This document shows, piece by piece, positions 13,260 through 40,956 of a DNA stretch of 64,000 nt; position 1 is the first letter of the stretch; the number at the start of each line of letters is the position of its first letter. Under the pieces are notes generated by a model. That model did not search any database. It was not told the origin of the DNA and saw only the letters and a program-made list of their open reading frames with translations. The position numbers and the translations under genes were made by a program. Source of the stretch: an uncultured Gammaproteobacteria bacterium (GTDB lineage Bacteria > Patescibacteriota > Patescibacteriia > Magasanikbacterales > GWA2-37-8); assembly GCA_964533715.1 (NCBI GenBank), contig CAZHNI010000004.1, positions 13,741 through 77,740 on the forward strand. The letters run 5' to 3'.

Positions 13260-14591
13260 TTAATAGTTTAGTTTCCATAGTCCATGTGTATCTTGCAAAT
13301 AAAGCACTCGATTTGTTGTGTCGGCAGTTACATTTGTTATTCCAGATAGAGCAAATTCATCTTGTATAAGATAATTAGGAAACAGAATTGATAACCGACC
13401 ATCTCGGACGAGCGCCAGAGTATCATATTCATCAAGCGGAGTAACTGAGGATATTGACCCACCAAATCGATTAACTAATTTTGGGTCAGCTCCTTCCTGG
13501 TAATTCCACAACTCGGATGGTGTAGAAATAAACCAAGTATTAGTGAAAGCGGAACGTACTATAGAGCCATGCGGAAACATGAATTGAGTGCCTGGAGTAA
13601 GAAGAGCTGTATCATTAGTGATTTTATTTTTTAGAAAAATACTTTGTCCGGTGGCATAGATAAAACGCCACTGTGCAGAATTGTCCTGGAGAGTTATTTG
13701 TGGCCAACGATTTTTAAAACCAAGGGCATCTTTAGTTATATAAAGAGTAGTAGTTGTTTCCGGATCGAGAGTCCAAAGTTCACTCCCCTCCATAAACCAA
13801 CTTAATAGAGCCTGGGAATTAATAGTTATTTTTTGTTCAGTGCGTGGTAAAAAGCTGTACAGACCATTTGCGGTGCTATAGTAAAGTTCCGGTTCGGCGC
13901 TATTACGCCACTGCCAGTTGGTGATTTCAGTAGTATCTGGCGTAATAATTTTAAATTGTCGGTCAAAATGTTCAGCATCAAAAATTATTAAGTATGTGTA
14001 CGGTTCATTTGTTCCGCTCACCGCCACGTAATTAAATTTTGTTGACCAATGTAGTAATATATCTTGTGTTCCAGGTAAACGTGCCAGCTCACTAATTTTT
14101 TTGGTTGGCACGTTATAAAGCCAAAGGATAGTTGTGGTGGTATTTTTTTGAGGAAATATTACAAATTTACCGTCGAATGATATTTCAGGCTTCTCGAAAG
14201 TTCCAGACGCTATGAGTTCGGGTTTGGTATCGCGAATCAGGTGAAGATTATTTATATATAAAGTTTTACCGTTTTCAATGATAATTTCTTTTTCCCAACT
14301 ATGGTACCCAGGAGCGGTGAGACGCAGCTGATATTTTTGTGGCGAAATATTTGAGAGACGAATGGGAATAGTTTTGTCAAGAAGTAAGTTATTAAGGTAC
14401 GCGTTGGTTTGTTTGGGAACCACGTCTATACTGATGCTGCCAGTTTCTCGCCAAAAACCGTTGCGCGCATCATAACGAAATCCGGCAGTATAGAAAAGTA
14501 CCAAAGGCAGCGAAACACAAAAAATAATTAAAAAAATTATAAAAGTAAGCAGGCGCCAACGGTGTGTAAATATTGATCCTGGATATTCCAT
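13260..14591 (-). CDS. hypothetical membrane-anchored protein
   Basis: N-terminal TM helix with a large extracytoplasmic domain and no recognised motif. Confidence 0.4.
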   Translation of the reverse strand: MEYPGSIFTHRWRLLTFIIFLIIFCVSLPLVLFYTAGFRYDARNGFWRETGSISIDVVPKQTNAYLNNLLLDKTIPIRLSNISPQKYQLRLTAPGYHSWEKEIIIENGKTLYINNLHLIRDTKPELIASGTFEKPEISFDGKFVIFPQKNTTTTILWLYNVPTKKISELARLPGTQDILLHWSTKFNYVAVSGTNEPYTYLIIFDAEHFDRQFKIITPDTTEITNWQWRNSAEPELYYSTANGLYSFLPRTEQKITINSQALLSWFMEGSELWTLDPETTTTLYITKDALGFKNRWPQITLQDNSAQWRFIYATGQSIFLKNKITNDTALLTPGTQFMFPHGSIVRSAFTNTWFISTPSELWNYQEGADPKLVNRFGGSISSVTPLDEYDTLALVRDGRLSILFPNYLIQDEFALSGITNVTADTTNRVLYLQDTHGLWKLNY

Positions 14592-21899: not shown

Positions 21900-23891
21900 T
21901 TGTATGGCATGTTTAAAGTATACCTCAAAACAGCAAAAAAATCAATATTAATTGGGTTTATCGCTACTTTTTGTTTAGTCAATAACCCGGTAAGTGCACG
22001 AACTCCGTTCGATCCAGAATATCCAACTCAGGAAGTCTTGTGGCAGCAAATCGGGGCCGAGAACGCTTGGAAATATACCACCGGGTCTCGTGATGTCACA
22101 GTGGCAGTTATTGACACCGGAATTGATACCTGGCACGACGATCTTCGGGACAATATTTGGACAAACCCCTACGAAATTCCTGGCAATGGTATTGACGATG
22201 ATCATAATGGGTATATCGATGATATAAATGGATGGAATTTTGTAGAAAATAATAATGACGTACGGACGTCGGTGATAGGAACGAGTAACGATCCAGAGGC
22301 AGTTCGACATGGTACCGTTATCGCTGGTCTCATTGGGGCAGTAGGAGATAATGGCAAAAATGGCACTGGTCTTAATTGGCATGTTAAAATAATGCCAATC
22401 AGAGCGATATTAAGTACCGGCGAGGGTGATTACAGTACGGTAATTCAAGCTATAGATTATGCCGTAAATAATGGCGCCGATATTATTAGCCTTAGTTTTG
22501 TAGGCAACGAAAACGATTCAGCTCTACGCGATCGTTTGCGGACTGCTTATGATAAAGGAATATTAGTTGTTGCTGCAGCTGGTAACCATACGCATGATAT
22601 AGTAGGCGATTTTGACAGTCGCCCAGTTTTTCCAGCTTGTTATGATAGTGGTGATACTGTTAACTGGATGTTAACCGTTGGTTCGGTAAATTCGTTTGGC
22701 CAGCTTAGCTCTTTTAGTAATTTTGGAAGTTGTGTTGATATAGTCGCTCCGGGAGAAAATATTTTTAGCACCGAACGATATGCTCCCCAGTATGGGTATT
22801 CGCGGGAGTTTGGTGGTCCCTGGAAGGGAACATCTTTTGCGGCACCGCTCGTAGCCGGCGCAGCCGCTTTGGTTAAATCACTCCAACCGGAATGGAGGGC
22901 AAAAGAGCTTATTGAGGTTTTAGATAATGCAGCTGACCCGATAGATTCGGTTAATTTGGCCTATCAGGGTAAGTTGGGCCACGGGCGTTTAAATGTCGCT
23001 AAGGCTGTCGATATTGCACTTAAATTAAAACCAAGTGGCCCAGTTGGCGGGTTCTATTATTATTTTTCATCCTCAACAATTTCTCGACTTAATTTCACTA
23101 CACGTAAAACAGAAACCGTTCAATCCCTCGGTGGCGACACAATTCAGAGCGTGGCTCTGTACAATCCAAACGTTGGACTCAAGGCACAAATAGCAGCTTT
23201 GGTTGCGAGGCGGTCATTTTATTATGTGCGCTTATTAAAAGATACGGGAGAGCCGCTGAGTGAATTTTCTTTAGAAATTCCAATTAACAGACAAACGGTA
23301 GTTAAAAAATTAAAGACAACTCCTCTGGCTTCTTCTCCTGGCAGATTTGTCGTTGAAGTATATTATCCACAGAAAAATAAAACAATATTTAAGGTATTCA
23401 ATGATCGTGGTGAGATAGTTAAAGAAATTCCATTTTTTGGATCAGTTGAAGCGTGGACACTCGGCCGTTTTGAACCAGTAATTTTTGTGGGTGCAAAAAC
23501 TAGCCGCAACCTTGTTTTTAGCCGCCTGCCGCTTGATGGATCGGTTGGTTCATCATACTCAATACCTCAAGCCGGTGCCGTTAAAATTGACGCTTTGCGT
23601 AGTGGTCACCTCAATCAAGGTGAAGGTGAAGAGATTGTTTTTTTAGCCCACCGTTCTAATAAAATTGAAAATATGATAGTAAATTTTGAAAAAAAGACCG
23701 CCACCACTACCTTGGTGAGCGAAACGCGCGATAAGGCGCCATGGCGTTTGCTGCTAGCCGACTCCACCGCTAGCGAGGAGGCTCTACTCTTTCCGTTTGC
23801 GGTAAATGGAGGTATTTTCCGTTTAGTAACCACGGATGGCAGTCCGGTAGCGGAAATTAAATTGCCTGTGCTAATTGGAACAACAGAATAG
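21900..23891 (+). CDS. secreted S8 subtilisin-like serine protease
   Basis: Has a signal peptide and the catalytic triad motifs VAVIDTGID, HGTVIAGLIG and GTSFAAPLVAGAAAL. Confidence 0.85.
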   Translation: MYGMFKVYLKTAKKSILIGFIATFCLVNNPVSARTPFDPEYPTQEVLWQQIGAENAWKYTTGSRDVTVAVIDTGIDTWHDDLRDNIWTNPYEIPGNGIDDDHNGYIDDINGWNFVENNNDVRTSVIGTSNDPEAVRHGTVIAGLIGAVGDNGKNGTGLNWHVKIMPIRAILSTGEGDYSTVIQAIDYAVNNGADIISLSFVGNENDSALRDRLRTAYDKGILVVAAAGNHTHDIVGDFDSRPVFPACYDSGDTVNWMLTVGSVNSFGQLSSFSNFGSCVDIVAPGENIFSTERYAPQYGYSREFGGPWKGTSFAAPLVAGAAALVKSLQPEWRAKELIEVLDNAADPIDSVNLAYQGKLGHGRLNVAKAVDIALKLKPSGPVGGFYYYFSSSTISRLNFTTRKTETVQSLGGDTIQSVALYNPNVGLKAQIAALVARRSFYYVRLLKDTGEPLSEFSLEIPINRQTVVKKLKTTPLASSPGRFVVEVYYPQKNKTIFKVFNDRGEIVKEIPFFGSVEAWTLGRFEPVIFVGAKTSRNLVFSRLPLDGSVGSSYSIPQAGAVKIDALRSGHLNQGEGEEIVFLAHRSNKIENMIVNFEKKTATTTLVSETRDKAPWRLLLADSTASEEALLFPFAVNGGIFRLVTTDGSPVAEIKLPVLIGTTE

Positions 23892-37390: not shown

Positions 37391-38827
37391 TTGTTTGCCA
37401 TATTGGTATACTTAAGTAATTCAACTATGAAAGTATCTTTTTTTGGTGCCGCCGGCGAAGTTACCGGTTCTTGTAGTCTAATAGAAACAGGGCAAAATAG
37501 CATTCTCATCGATTGCGGAATGTTTCAGGGCAGTGATTTTAACGATGCCAAAAATCATAAACCGCTGCCGTTTGATCCTAAAACGCTCACACATGTTTTT
37601 ATTACTCACGCCCACCTCGATCATACCGGGCGTTTGCCGCTTTTGGTTAAACAAGGTTATAGCGGGTATTTTTATGCTACCGCCCCAACACTCGAGTTGG
37701 CCGAATTGGTTATGAAAGATGCGCACAATATAATGGTCTACGATAATAAAAAATTTGGTCGGACCATTTTATATAGTGAAGAAGATATTGCAGGGGTGAT
37801 GGGAAGAACTAAGGCTGTAAAATACGGAGAGGAGTTGAAATTTGGTGGTATTGTTGGTGAAAGGGATTCTTCGGCTACGCTCCGCTCCGCTCAGAATGAC
37901 AATCTGGTGGTGAGATTTCACGACGTCGGCCACATTTTTGGTTCTGCTTTTATCGAAATTAACGCCGAGGGTAAGAAAATTGTATTCTCCGGAGATGTTG
38001 GTAATGTTCATGTACCTATTTTACGCGATACCGAAGCTTTGCCGAGCAATCTTGACCTTTTAGTTTGTGAGTCAACCTACGGCGACCGCCTGCACGAAGT
38101 TCGCGCCACACGAGAAGAAATGATTGAAGAGGCGATACTCGATGGTGTTGGTAGGGGAGGAGTTCTCATGATTCCTTCGTTTGCTTTGGAGCGCACGCAA
38201 GAATTAATGTATGAACTTAATAAACTCATTGACCACAAACACAAGCTCGGTGGCATTCCCATTTTTTTAGATAGCCCACTCGCTATTGACGCAATTAAAG
38301 TGTATCGCAAATACCCCGAATATTACGACGAAAAAGCCAATGAATATTTTAAAGATGGTGATGATATTTTTGATTTTAAGAACTTAATTACTACATATTC
38401 GCGCGAAGAATCCATGAAAATAAATCATACCCTTGGGCCTAAAGTTATTATTGCCGGTGCCGGCATGATGAACGGGGGTAGAATTTTGCACCACGCTCTT
38501 CGTTATTTATCGGATGCGCGTAACACAATTTTGTTTATTGGTTACCAATCTCCCGGGACGCTGGGCAGACAAATTCAAGACGGTCATTCAACCGTAGAGG
38601 TATTGGGCGAGCGCGTGCAAGTAAAATGCAAAATAAATAATATTAGTGCGCTGTCAGCTCATGGTGATCAAAATAAGCTCGTCAGTTGGATTGGGGCGGC
38701 TAAACCAAAACGTGTTTATTTTAACCACGGGGAAGATAGTGCCGCTCAGGCAATTAGTAGTAAATTATCTAAAGAATTTAATGTGGAAGCAGTTATAGCT
38801 AAACCAAAATTAACTATTCAAGTATAA
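37391..38827 (+). CDS. MBL-fold beta-CASP ribonuclease (RNA-metabolising metallo-beta-lactamase)
   Basis: HxHxDH motif (THAHLDHTGRLP) plus beta-CASP motifs. Confidence 0.8.
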   Translation: MFAILVYLSNSTMKVSFFGAAGEVTGSCSLIETGQNSILIDCGMFQGSDFNDAKNHKPLPFDPKTLTHVFITHAHLDHTGRLPLLVKQGYSGYFYATAPTLELAELVMKDAHNIMVYDNKKFGRTILYSEEDIAGVMGRTKAVKYGEELKFGGIVGERDSSATLRSAQNDNLVVRFHDVGHIFGSAFIEINAEGKKIVFSGDVGNVHVPILRDTEALPSNLDLLVCESTYGDRLHEVRATREEMIEEAILDGVGRGGVLMIPSFALERTQELMYELNKLIDHKHKLGGIPIFLDSPLAIDAIKVYRKYPEYYDEKANEYFKDGDDIFDFKNLITTYSREESMKINHTLGPKVIIAGAGMMNGGRILHHALRYLSDARNTILFIGYQSPGTLGRQIQDGHSTVEVLGERVQVKCKINNISALSAHGDQNKLVSWIGAAKPKRVYFNHGEDSAAQAISSKLSKEFNVEAVIAKPKLTIQV

Positions 38828-38856
38828 ATTTTTAGAATAAAAAATAACTTATCCAC

Positions 38857-38884
38857 AATCCCGAGTAACTCGGGATTTTTTGTT
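38857..38884 (+). terminator. intrinsic terminator AATCCCGAG-TAA-CTCGGGATT + T-run
   Basis: Perfect 9-bp stem followed by TTTTTTGTTTT. Confidence 0.7.
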
Positions 38885-38927: not shown

Positions 38928-38956
38928 TTGACGGGTGTTTCTAAGTGGTGTAAAAT
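38928..38956 (+). promoter_or_regulatory. sigma70-like promoter (TTGACG, 17-nt spacer, TAAAAT), candidate dcw/Pmra promoter
   Basis: Hexamers at 38928-38933 and 38951-38956. Confidence 0.45.
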
Positions 38957-38960
38957 GGAA

Positions 38961-38990
38961 GCAGGTGGGGAAAAGTGGTGAAACCACGGA
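38961..38990 (+). promoter_or_regulatory. candidate MraZ operator: GTGG repeats at 10-bp spacing (GTGGGGAAAA GTGGTGAAAC CACGG)
   Basis: Direct GTGG repeats with about 10-bp periodicity just downstream of the -10, resembling MraZ-box arrays. Confidence 0.35.
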
Positions 38991-39433
38991 TTTTTTCCAC
39001 GGATATTCACGGATTTTGTATGAGCGAAGAAGGGCTTGTTTTTAAAGAGATAACTCATGAGCTTATCGGTTGCGCCTACACTGTATTTAATGAGCTAAAG
39101 TTTGGCTACAGCGAAAAATATTATCAACGCGCTTACGCTCTTGAACTCCAGAAAAAAGCCCGTTCTTTTGTACGAGAGTTTCCAGTTCCTATTGCGTATC
39201 AAGGATGTTCGATCGGAAGATATATGCTTGATTTTCTGATTGATAACAAGATTATTGTTGAGTTTAAAGTTGGAAATGATTTTTCTCTGCAACATGTAGC
39301 GCAAGTTCTTGGATATCTCAAGGCTCTTAACAAAAAATTGGCGTTGATTATTCTGTTTTCTCCACACGGTGTAAAAGTTAAACGAATAATCAATTGATCG
39401 AATCCGTGTAAATCAGTGTAAAAGATCCGTGGT
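38981..39433. repeat. inverted-repeat-bounded cassette carrying a GxxExxY gene
   Basis: The left arm is CCACGGATTTTTTCCACGGATATTCACGGATT (38984-39016). The right arm is AATCCGTGTAAATCAGTGTAAAAGATCCGTGG (39401-39432), the imperfect reverse complement. The cassette lies between the promoter/MraZ boxes and the mraZ ATG. Confidence 0.5.
39020..39397 (+). CDS. GxxExxY protein (PD-(D/E)XK nuclease-like fold family)
   Basis: HELIGCAYTVFNELKFGYSEKYYQRAYALEL...FLIDNKIIVEFK matches the GxxExxY family. The ORF track starts at a GTG at 38975; an ATG at 39020 is also possible. Confidence 0.75.
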   Translation: MSEEGLVFKEITHELIGCAYTVFNELKFGYSEKYYQRAYALELQKKARSFVREFPVPIAYQGCSIGRYMLDFLIDNKIIVEFKVGNDFSLQHVAQVLGYLKALNKKLALIILFSPHGVKVKRIIN

Positions 39434-39435
39434 CT

Positions 39436-39867
39436 ATGTTTATTGGCGAATATTCTCACAATCTTGATGACAAAGGTCGGCTGGCAATTCCGGCCAAGTT
39501 TCGCGCCGCGCTCAAAAAAGGCGCAGTAGTCACTCGCGGTCTTGATAGTTGTTTGTTTTTGTACACCAAAGCTGAGTGGGAAAAACTCGCCGAAAAATTG
39601 GCCTCGCTCCCCATTAGCCAAGCCAACAGTCGAGCATTTGCTCGTCTTATGCTGGCTGGTGCTATGGATGTGGAAATGGATAAACAGGGGCGAGCAATTC
39701 TCCCTGAGTATCTCCGAAAATTTGCGAATCTCACTAAGTCCGTTGTGGTTGCCGGTCTTTACAATCGATTAGAAATCTGGGATTCAGAAAAATGGAACGT
39801 GTATAAAAGCCAAACCGAAAGTGAGAGCGGCGCCATTGCCGAACGTATGGCAGAACTTGGAGTGTAG
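39436..39867 (+). CDS. mraZ: transcriptional regulator MraZ
   Basis: MFIGEYSHNLDDKGRLAIPAKFR with duplicated SpoVT/AbrB-like halves. Confidence 0.9.
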   Translation: MFIGEYSHNLDDKGRLAIPAKFRAALKKGAVVTRGLDSCLFLYTKAEWEKLAEKLASLPISQANSRAFARLMLAGAMDVEMDKQGRAILPEYLRKFANLTKSVVVAGLYNRLEIWDSEKWNVYKSQTESESGAIAERMAELGV

Positions 39868-39942
39868 TTCATTAAAACACAAGAACACAAGAACATTAAA
39901 ACAATTGTTTTTTATGTTTTTATGTTTTAGTGTTTTTATGAT

Positions 39943-40956
39943 ATGCGCCACGTTCCAGTTCTACTTAATGAAGTAATTGCTGCCTTAGAGCCAAAATCTG
40001 GGATGAATTTTGTTGATTGTACTCTAGGCGATGGCGGTCATGCTGAAGCTATTTTGGAAAAAATAGCCCCGAGTGGAAAGTTGCTTGGAATCGACGCCGA
40101 TCCAGAATCACTCCTTCGCGCTAAACAATATTTGTACCGTTTTGGAGAGCGTGCTATGTATGTCCGCGATAATTTCGTACACATGAAAAAAATTGTTGCT
40201 GAAAACAATTTTGGTCATGTTGACGGAATACTTATGGATTTAGGTTGGTCAAGTCCGCAGTTTGCGGAACGGGGGAGAGGGTTTAGTTTCGAGAAGGATG
40301 AAAAATTAGACATGCGGTACGACCCCAACTGTCATTCTGAGGGAGGAACGACCGAAGAATCTCTGGCTCATTTGGAGAACGGGCAGAGATCCTTAATTCC
40401 GCTCAGGATGACATGTGAAACAGCTGCGGAGATAGTGAACGGTTATTCTGAAACAGAACTAAATCACATTTTTAAAACGTACGGTGAAGAAAAATTGTAC
40501 AAAGAAATTGCCGAAGCGATTGTTGCTACAAGGAACAAGGAACAAGGAACAAATAACAAAATCGAAACGACAAAACAATTAGTGGATATTATTTTGGAAG
40601 TTTACCGTAACAAATTAAATAGCACTAAAGAAATTCCCTGGATTGGTGGAATTCACCCGGCCACCAAGGTGTTTCAAGCTCTCCGCATTGAGGTTAACCA
40701 GGAATTAGCTGTTTTAAAAGAAGTTTTACCGCAATTAGTTGAAATTCTTTCTCCCGGTGGCCGTTTAGCAGTTATAACTTTCCACTCGTTGGAAGACAGA
40801 ACAGTAAAACAGTTTTTTCAAACAATAGCACATAAACAAATAAAATTAATTAATAAAAAACCGCTCACCGCAAGCGCAAAAGAATTAGCGGACAATTCAC
40901 GATCGAGAAGCGCAAAATTGCGAGTAGTGGAAAAAATAAATGAAAATAAAAATTAA
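39943..40956 (+). CDS. rsmH: 16S rRNA (cytosine1402-N4)-methyltransferase RsmH, with an in-frame ~29-aa palindromic-element insertion
   Basis: VPVLLNEV, DCTLGDGGHA, the FSF...LDMRYDP motif and TFHSLEDR are present. Residues ~129-158 (NCHSEGGTTEESLAHLENGQRSLIPLRMTC) are encoded by a repeat copy. Confidence 0.9.
   Translation: MRHVPVLLNEVIAALEPKSGMNFVDCTLGDGGHAEAILEKIAPSGKLLGIDADPESLLRAKQYLYRFGERAMYVRDNFVHMKKIVAENNFGHVDGILMDLGWSSPQFAERGRGFSFEKDEKLDMRYDPNCHSEGGTTEESLAHLENGQRSLIPLRMTCETAAEIVNGYSETELNHIFKTYGEEKLYKEIAEAIVATRNKEQGTNNKIETTKQLVDIILEVYRNKLNSTKEIPWIGGIHPATKVFQALRIEVNQELAVLKEVLPQLVEILSPGGRLAVITFHSLEDRTVKQFFQTIAHKQIKLINKKPLTASAKELADNSRSRSAKLRVVEKINENKN
40329..40414. repeat. palindromic mini-element (copy 5) inserted in-frame within rsmH
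   Basis: ACTGTCATTCTGAGGGAGGAACGACCGAAGAATCTCTGGC...GGGCAGAGATCC...GCTCAGGATGACATGT, about 85 percent identical to the copy at 25696. There is no stop codon in the rsmH frame. Confidence 0.85.

Follow-up and report, generated by a model that had tools for sequence, protein, structure and literature searches.

Genes for predicted GxxExxY nucleases between mirrored heptamer arrays: a candidate selfish cassette in the mraZ leader of a Magasanikbacteria-type genome

The mraZ leader and its predicted nuclease gene

The leader of mraZ in contig CAZHNI010000004.1 holds, between the MraZ boxes of the division and cell wall (dcw) promoter and the mraZ start codon, a small GxxExxY-family gene framed by two arms of inverted repeats. 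Gene and arms together are called the cassette here, and the whole 64,000-nt stretch that was analysed (contig positions 13,741 to 77,740, forward strand) is called the window. The window is of Magasanikbacteria type (Candidate Phyla Radiation), its 80 closest mraZ loci coming from such metagenome-assembled genomes. An earlier note, made from the sequence alone, had pointed to a near-consensus promoter, to GTGG repeats at 10-bp spacing and, following these in place of mraZ, to a GxxExxY gene between imperfect inverted repeats; each of these elements is present (Table 1). The promoter matches the consensus at 10 of 12 positions, is the top promoter-like site of the region, and is conserved, with its TTGACG-17-TAAAAT plan, among related genomes (80 loci aligned). 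The GTGG series fits the published binding repeats of MraZ, in which GTGG recurs every 10 bp (bioRxiv 10.1101/2022.02.09.479790), and insertion of the cassette has left it unaltered. mraZ begins at 39436, as the same note had it 3 nt past the right repeat; measured from the arm as we define it the distance is 2-3 nt.

The gene product is a bona fide, full member of the family as judged by profile matches: to TIGR04256 (E 3e-30; 104.8 bits, cut-off 35; aligned over the whole profile, positions 1-116) and to PF13366, also named PDDEXK_3 (E 4e-29; 101.8 bits against a cut-off of 22). The identification in the earlier note therefore stands, while the length it gave, 126 aa, does not, the protein having 125. 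The motif residues G29, E32 and Y35 that give the family its name are present, and E32, D71, E81, K83, Q95 and Y99 are invariant across 36 aligned family sequences. Among these residues are the D...ExK core and, in Q95 and Y99, the QxxxY motif, which is characteristic of nucleases of the RecB family. An AlphaFold2 model (mean confidence, pLDDT, 94; pTM 0.87) has a PD-(D/E)xK core, and the top matches returned for it by Foldseek are Cas4 SSO0001 (E 1e-4), the lambda-exonuclease-like LHK-Exo, the AdnAB nuclease domain and MGME1, with E-values of 1e-4 to 1e-2 and TM-scores of only about 0.5. A sequence search of the PDB with the protein gave no meaningful match. The model and the residues together portray a minimal RecB/Cas4-like nuclease, predicted to have its catalytic residues intact. 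There is no additional domain and no iron-sulphur (Fe-S) cysteine cluster, the protein having two cysteines, neither of them conserved. Cas4 proper was considered and ruled out, both by the missing four-cysteine Fe-S cluster and by the neighbours, which are a beta-CASP RNase gene and mraZ, not cas genes.

The source annotation calls a 140-aa product (P0001) that starts within the third MraZ box, at GTG 38975, and takes the left arm into the reading frame. The family alignment supports ATG 39020 as the true start; exact look-up of the 125-aa sequence gave no match because the source calls the longer open reading frame (ORF). The family's function is entered as "Unknown" (PMC3424549). It is a large family, 6,757 representative clusters at 50% identity matching at E <= 1e-3, and some of the cluster representatives are tandem fusions of 250-277 aa.

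The arms are 33 nt each and complementary at 28 of the 33 positions (85%). Their ungapped inverted-repeat score of 18 stands above all of 2000 random 378-bp intervals of the window (mean 5.9, maximum 12), a control that bears out the inverted repeats of the earlier note and rules out a chance pairing. What that note missed is the make-up of the arms: three direct heptamers form an array in each, and the spacing of one array is mirrored in the other. CACGGAT or its complement ATCCGTG occurs nine times in the 64 kb, five of them inside the cassette and the rest at chance level. A second, degenerate GxxExxY gene was suspected near 23.5 kb, from a weak tblastn match and a copy of CCACGGAT at 23830, and was rejected: the motif falls in an unrelated coding region.

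Table 1. Features around the mraZ leader of the window, in window coordinates, and the heptamer arrays of cassettes at other junctions
Feature	Location	Strand	Details
beta-CASP RNase gene	37391-38827		upstream neighbour of the mraZ promoter region
Intrinsic-terminator-like hairpin and T-run	38857-38877	+	ends the beta-CASP RNase gene; marks start of the mraZ promoter region
mraZ (dcw) promoter	38928-38956	+	TTGACG 38928-38933, 17-nt spacer, TAAAAT 38951-38956; conserved in an alignment of 80 related loci
MraZ-box series, 10-bp period	38945-38978	+	GTGG 38945, ATGG 38955, GTGG 38965, GTGG 38975
Cassette left arm	38983-39015	+	three direct CACGGAT at 38985, 38998, 39008; spacing 13, 10 nt; first two = CCACGGAT
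GxxExxY / PDDEXK_3 gene	39020-39397	+	125 aa; E32, D71, E81, K83, Q95, Y99 intact; predicted minimal RecB/Cas4-like PD-(D/E)xK nuclease
Cassette right arm	39401-39433	+	ATCCGTG 39402, ATCAGTG 39412, ATCCGTG 39425 (within ATCCGTGG, 39425); spacing 10, 13 nt, mirror of left
mraZ	39436-39867	+	143 aa; start codon 2-3 nt past right arm
rsmH	39943-40956		downstream of mraZ
Cassette L086	ftsE-ftsX junction		left CACTAAT x3; right ATTAGTG x3
Cassette L087	lepA-recJ junction		left CACAGAT x2 and CACTGAT; right ATCTGTG x2
Cassette L091	after a Mur ligase gene		left CACAAAT, CACAGAT, CGCAGAT; right ATCTGTG x3
Cassette L092	frr-rseP junction		left CACCAAT, CACTAAT, CACCTAT; right ATTAGTG, ATGGGTG
Cassette L093	lemA-htpX junction		left CGCAGAT x3; right ATCTGTG, ATCTGCG x2

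Empty and occupied mraZ loci

Eighty related Magasanikbacteria-type mraZ loci (L001-L080) were fetched, and presence of the gene was scored by tblastn and the family's hidden Markov model. The same arrangement of promoter and MraZ boxes recurs across them, and the GxxExxY gene is missing from 79, the sole carrier being L041. Two more occupied mraZ alleles were reached via protein homologues: L081 (protein P0002, 72% identical to that of the window, with the same CACGGAT arrays) and L090 (P0003, 61%). In empty alleles, four of which were examined in detail, the last box leads into a short native leader and then mraZ, with 85-95 nt from promoter to ATG; in the four occupied alleles (window, L081, L090, L041) this distance is 508-575 nt, 508 in the window. 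All four cassettes at the site have arms; a gene lacking its repeats here, which would have refuted the earlier note, was met in none of the occupied alleles. Insertion between the dcw promoter with its MraZ boxes and mraZ, as the earlier note proposed, is well supported as the derived state by these alignments.

The change was not a simple insertion. Of the 80 leaders, 45 contain a native motif, (A/G)TGCTTGTCT, that is gone from all four occupied alleles; it follows that the cassette took the place of about 29 nt of leader. On the left the junction lies directly past box 3 (GTGGTGAAA followed by CCAC), and on the right it lies 2-3 nt before the ATG. In the native leaders this motif is the loop of a conserved hairpin between the last MraZ box and mraZ (for example L036:1577-1628 and L060:2941-2992). 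The stem of this hairpin covaries, with 9 predicted pairs, all showing compensatory changes, in 22 sequences; where it is short, MraZ box 3 itself makes up the 5' arm. The hairpin, which matches no Rfam family, may be a cis-regulatory RNA acting on the dcw operon. It is absent from 38979-39435 of the window, displaced there by the cassette. A CACTAAT heptamer forms the 3' arm of the hairpin in four native leaders (L001, L006, L009 and L014); this could explain a preference for the mraZ site, and we offer it only as a lead.

It might be supposed that the CACGGAT repeats are nothing but extra or variant MraZ boxes of the dcw operator, the nuclease gene merely lying between operator halves. Their outermost copies do read CCAC/GTGG, the MraZ-box core, and they are spaced at nearly one helical turn; box 3 and the left end of the cassette together form GTGGTgaaACCAC; and the gene-less leader of L046 is flanked by CCACCGAT and ATCCGTGG. 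The arrays are nevertheless missing from gene-less relatives, save three remnant-like cases (L073, L054 and L046), and the same arrays surround GxxExxY genes at ftsE-ftsX, lepA-recJ, frr-rseP and lemA-htpX, in the last of which (L093) the heptamer CGCAGAT has no GTG core at all. The comparison refutes the supposition, which would have told against the earlier note as well, and we allow it next to no probability.

The three gene-less array fragments differ in what they keep. L073 (2960-3000) has a solo right-type triple array abutting the mraZ ATG, its leader ending in ATTAGTttATTAGTGttaagATTCGTGttcct followed by ATG; L054 (about 2790-2860) has two left-type heptamers past box 3, CACCGATcatCCACGAT; and in L046 (2910-3000) the base of the leader hairpin is closed by the flanking pair just mentioned (ATCCGTGGct directly before ATG), the same terminal octamers as in the window cassette. 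These fragments might be what lost cassettes left behind, or they might hint at how the arms arose. At L090 (840-948) there are two right arrays, the inner one of three ATTAGTG and the outer one of ATTAGTG then two ATTCGTG, separated by a fragment that resembles the -10 region of the promoter (TTAAAATGG); the arrangement suggests nested or successive insertions. A co-conversion tract was also considered at L041, whose promoter matches that of sister genomes as far as the -10 element and diverges beyond it, and was set aside, the segment being too short to count as evidence. In the window, MraZ box 3 and the left end of the cassette (38975-38996) read GTGGTgaaACCAC, then GGATTTTTTC, a weak terminator-like hairpin at the start of the transcript which is also found in L081 and might serve transcription attenuation.

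Occupied genomes are scattered over the host tree, built from MraZ and RsmH. L041 is nested inside the empty L044 and L051 (bootstrap 100 and 99), L081 groups with the empty L001 and L005 (92) and not with the window (1), and the occupied genomes never group together (0). Since they are not monophyletic, the locus must have been gained or lost repeatedly. The nucleases, placed by neighbour-joining, fall into one clade for the four linked to mraZ. Two scenarios fit: related cassettes entered the same mraZ site several times, or one old insertion was followed by repeated replacement by empty alleles. Simple deletion of the cassette cannot account for the empty alleles, because the empty sisters retain the leader hairpin. 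Under either scenario the mraZ-leader locus is dynamic, and the gene-less array fragments lend support to this.

Heptamer arrays at other operon junctions

Homologues were sampled more widely through 11 exact-protein look-ups; a metagenome scan with one protein added one partial relative. Nine non-redundant cassettes have CACNRAT or CGCAGAT heptamers upstream of the gene and the reverse complement downstream (window, L081, L041, L090, L091, L086, L087, L092 and L093), and they occupy six genomic sites: the mraZ leader and the five other places listed in Table 1. The heptamer consensus is CACNRAT (CGCAGAT in L093), with an outer gap of 13-15 nt and an inner gap of 9-11 nt. In seven of these cassettes both sides have three copies, in mirrored spacing; in L087 and L092 only two right-hand copies are recognisable. 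Heptamer pairs of this kind are rare in the background (34 in 473 kb), and for nine of 13 cassettes scored, no more than 3% of 3000 control intervals had an inverted-repeat score as high. In each of the 10 different contexts of insertion the cassette points the same way as both neighbours, and its arms take up the stretch between the stop codon, or operator, on the upstream side and the start codon of the next gene. On these comparisons gene and repeat arms appear to behave as one unit, and the arms appear as a geometrically fixed, family-wide feature of a GxxExxY subfamily.

Beyond this core the plan loosens. Three further junctions carry other repeats: L137 has ACGAAT units; L138, at cysD-cysN, has ACGAAA units in tandem modules; and in L139, at pilM-pilN, the left array is duplicated and the right arm degraded. 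Neither L138 nor L139 passes the inverted-repeat test. In L139 (750-950) it is the last 35 nt or so of the upstream pilM-like gene, stop codon included, that has been tandemly duplicated together with the left array. A plasmid collection yielded three distant matches, two of which were inspected: one from Persicobacter, with different, AATCC-type repeats, and a Fusobacteria plasmid, L141, with ATCNGTG arrays in direct orientation. On the IMG/VR contig L107 (1240-1989) tandem gene-less modules, each consisting of a left array (CGCAGAT-type), a spacer of about 15 nt and a right array (ATCAGCG-type), flank a single GxxExxY gene; they look like non-autonomous miniature derivatives.

Which property of the arms is maintained can be seen by setting the window against L081, whose nuclease is 72% identical: the heptamers agree at 42 of 42 nt and the spacers at 7 of 18 (Fisher p 9e-8). 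Both even keep the aberrant middle copy, ATCAGTG, whose G-A mismatch with its partner breaks the pairing of the arms. In L086 a pair of spacers is non-complementary (ACAACG and TTTAAA), and the L081 spacers are likewise non-complementary. From these alignments it is the heptamers and their geometry that seem to be conserved, and not the complementarity of the arms as such.

This bears on the possibility that the arms act in RNA. A long stem would enclose the nuclease ORF much as in the intervening sequences of ribosomal RNA (rRNA), where small ORFs lie within the stem of flanking inverted repeats that is excised by RNase III. Processing by RNase III, or folding itself, would insulate the messenger RNA (mRNA) and bring its 5' end to the mraZ start, the repeats being structural. 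Predicted folds of 38963-39470, minimum-free-energy and centroid alike, do have the arms paired (z -2.9; none of 100 shuffles folds as well), the arms abut the start codons of the nuclease gene and of the gene downstream, every cassette is co-directional with its host operon, and the native leader that was replaced is itself a hairpin. For such a stem, however, complementarity would suffice, with no need for three identical heptamers at fixed mirrored spacing. The non-complementary spacers of L086 and L081 and the G-A mismatch conserved between window and L081 without compensation speak against it too, as do the direct orientation of the arrays in L141 and the arrays without a gene in L107. 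The likeness to the rRNA elements extends to the ORF enclosed by a predicted stem; the difference lies in the host sequence, here an mRNA leader or operon junction, and in pairing without compensatory change. We think an RNA role for the arms unlikely, though it deserves to be kept in view. Conservation of the heptamers over the spacers points instead to recognition of the arrays by a multimeric protein.

A possible selfish cassette and its known analogues

In its essentials the interpretation of the earlier note, a small mobile cassette in the leader of the dcw operon, has turned out right, its mobility being what we infer from the comparison of loci. We found no convincing promoter or terminator between cassette and mraZ, and it is on this single ground that the cassette may be said, in the words of that note, to have "hijacked" the leader, that is, to be expressed from the mraZ promoter.

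The explanation that we favour, in a judgement that is evenly balanced, is that nuclease gene and cognate arrays form a selfish cassette which is expressed by read-through, here from the MraZ-controlled promoter, and which spreads or persists by nuclease-stimulated recombination. Segment 38983-39433 would be one copy of this compact element, made up of the 125-aa nuclease gene and two mirrored triple-heptamer arrays. The nuclease, acting as a multimer, would bind or cleave the arrays of its own cassette. Cassettes would settle at junctions of co-directional genes and rely on read-through from the host promoter; in the window the MraZ-repressed dcw promoter would drive the nuclease gene, which would thereby become the first gene of the dcw operon. 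Spread or retention would proceed by homing-like allele replacement, stimulated by the nuclease, and not by classical transposition, and the CACTAAT-type heptamer of several native leaders may favour recurrent use of the mraZ leader.

Several observations weigh against a selfish cassette of this kind. The window has a single copy, with CACGGAT not dispersed in its 64 kb, and no near-identical cassettes were seen at two different loci among those compared. No target-site duplication was found at the junctions examined (window flanks GTGAAA on the left and TCTATG on the right; L081, L086, L091). The divergence of the four mraZ-linked nucleases (72, 61 and 53%) roughly tracks that of their hosts, there is no compositional difference between cassette and host, and a long vertical residence with losses would be a possible history. 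RecB/Cas4-like nucleases are usually end-processing enzymes and not sequence-specific binders, and the 125-aa protein is without a separate DNA-binding domain. Lastly, distant IMG/VR relatives (about 30% identity) mostly lack arrays, which means that the architecture is not universal to PDDEXK_3.

Some of these points are what would be expected of a long-resident gene useful to its host: a small repair or recombination nuclease co-regulated with division, its arrays serving as operator to a regulator, either its own or one of the host, with vertical inheritance at mraZ and loss from many lineages. The single clade of mraZ-linked proteins with divergence tracking the hosts, the host-like composition, the conserved catalytic residues and the lack of any sign of recent movement all suit it. 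But one in 80 scanned genomes (L041) carries the gene at mraZ, four occupied alleles being known when the window, L081 and L090 are counted; the empty sisters keep an ancestral leader hairpin that deletion of a cassette could not recreate; and the same unit of gene and arrays sits at many unrelated junctions and in other phyla. A host function of this sort strikes us as distinctly improbable.

For the selfish cassette, the best functional analogy is with the Ssn nucleases of the GIY-YIG superfamily, whose genes are bracketed by short NTS/SRM repeats that the protein recognises (PMC11893778). The likeness is that of a small nuclease gene with the same short repeat on both sides; the nuclease superfamily differs, the Ssn repeats are hairpins with hundreds of dispersed copies, and here there are only two triple arrays, whose recognition would be assumed by analogy. 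In REP/RAYT systems, too, a single-copy nuclease-type gene lies between inverted copies of its cognate repeat, the RAYTs being HUH/Y1 enzymes and the REPs dispersed palindromes; inverted repeats bracketing a nuclease gene are common to both, and the difference is that no dispersal is seen in the 64-kb window. Free-standing homing endonuclease genes include PD-(D/E)xK types such as I-Ssp6803I, and share with the cassette presence/absence polymorphism at the same site, lack of target-site duplication and replacement of a short target stretch; occupied and empty alleles of the mraZ site, as would be looked for in a homing gene, do not follow host phylogeny. To our knowledge homing endonuclease genes do not carry triple-repeat inverted arms, and the fold of the window protein is nearer to RecB, Cas4 and lambda exonuclease than to the restriction-type homing enzymes. 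Transposons such as Tn7 and Mu have inverted ends, each with several transposase sites. The cassette resembles them in its inverted ends with about three spaced short sites per end, and differs in being without a DDE, HUH, serine or tyrosine recombinase, target-site duplication or, within the 64-kb window, multicopy spread. A classical inverted-repeat transposon or insertion sequence was rejected for such reasons: terminal inverted repeats are present, but target sites are not duplicated and the single ORF has no match other than PDDEXK_3.

The GxxExxY family itself is known; its repeat-array architecture is without published description in the literature searched, in which, under GxxExxY, PDDEXK_3, PF13366 and TIGR04256, we found no account of flanking repeat arrays or of placement at operon junctions. 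A wider proposal, which we hold only tentatively and with more doubt than conviction, is that GxxExxY cassettes are an unrecognised class of minimal mobile element, in which a 125-aa RecB/Cas4-like nuclease, the only protein encoded, assembles on the arrays and the cassette homes into operon junctions, the mraZ leader being captured repeatedly through the matching heptamer of its native hairpin. The arrays tie at least one PF13366/GxxExxY subfamily to a conserved DNA motif in fixed geometry, which gives it a first concrete candidate ligand and an assay. We know of no mobility driven by the RecB/Cas4-like class of nucleases; should nuclease and arrays act together, they would make a very small self-contained element based on such an enzyme, and possibly a compact nuclease, directed by sequence, that could be of practical interest. 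The host, for its part, would have a foreign nuclease gene under MraZ control, first in the division operon, with the leader hairpin displaced, a displacement that should alter expression of mraZ and the dcw genes in this lineage.

Two minor features of the neighbourhood may be added. In 70 of the 80 related loci the 350 nt before mraZ contain, upstream of the promoter, a DnaA-box-like motif, TTATCCAC(A) or, as the complement, GTGGATAA, the background rate being 0.077 per 350 nt; in the window it is at 38849-38857, immediately 5' of the terminator hairpin. The spacer between mraZ and rsmH (39880-39940), on inspection and in a scan for triple 7-mers, contains short direct repeats, acacaagaac twice and tgtttttatg three times.

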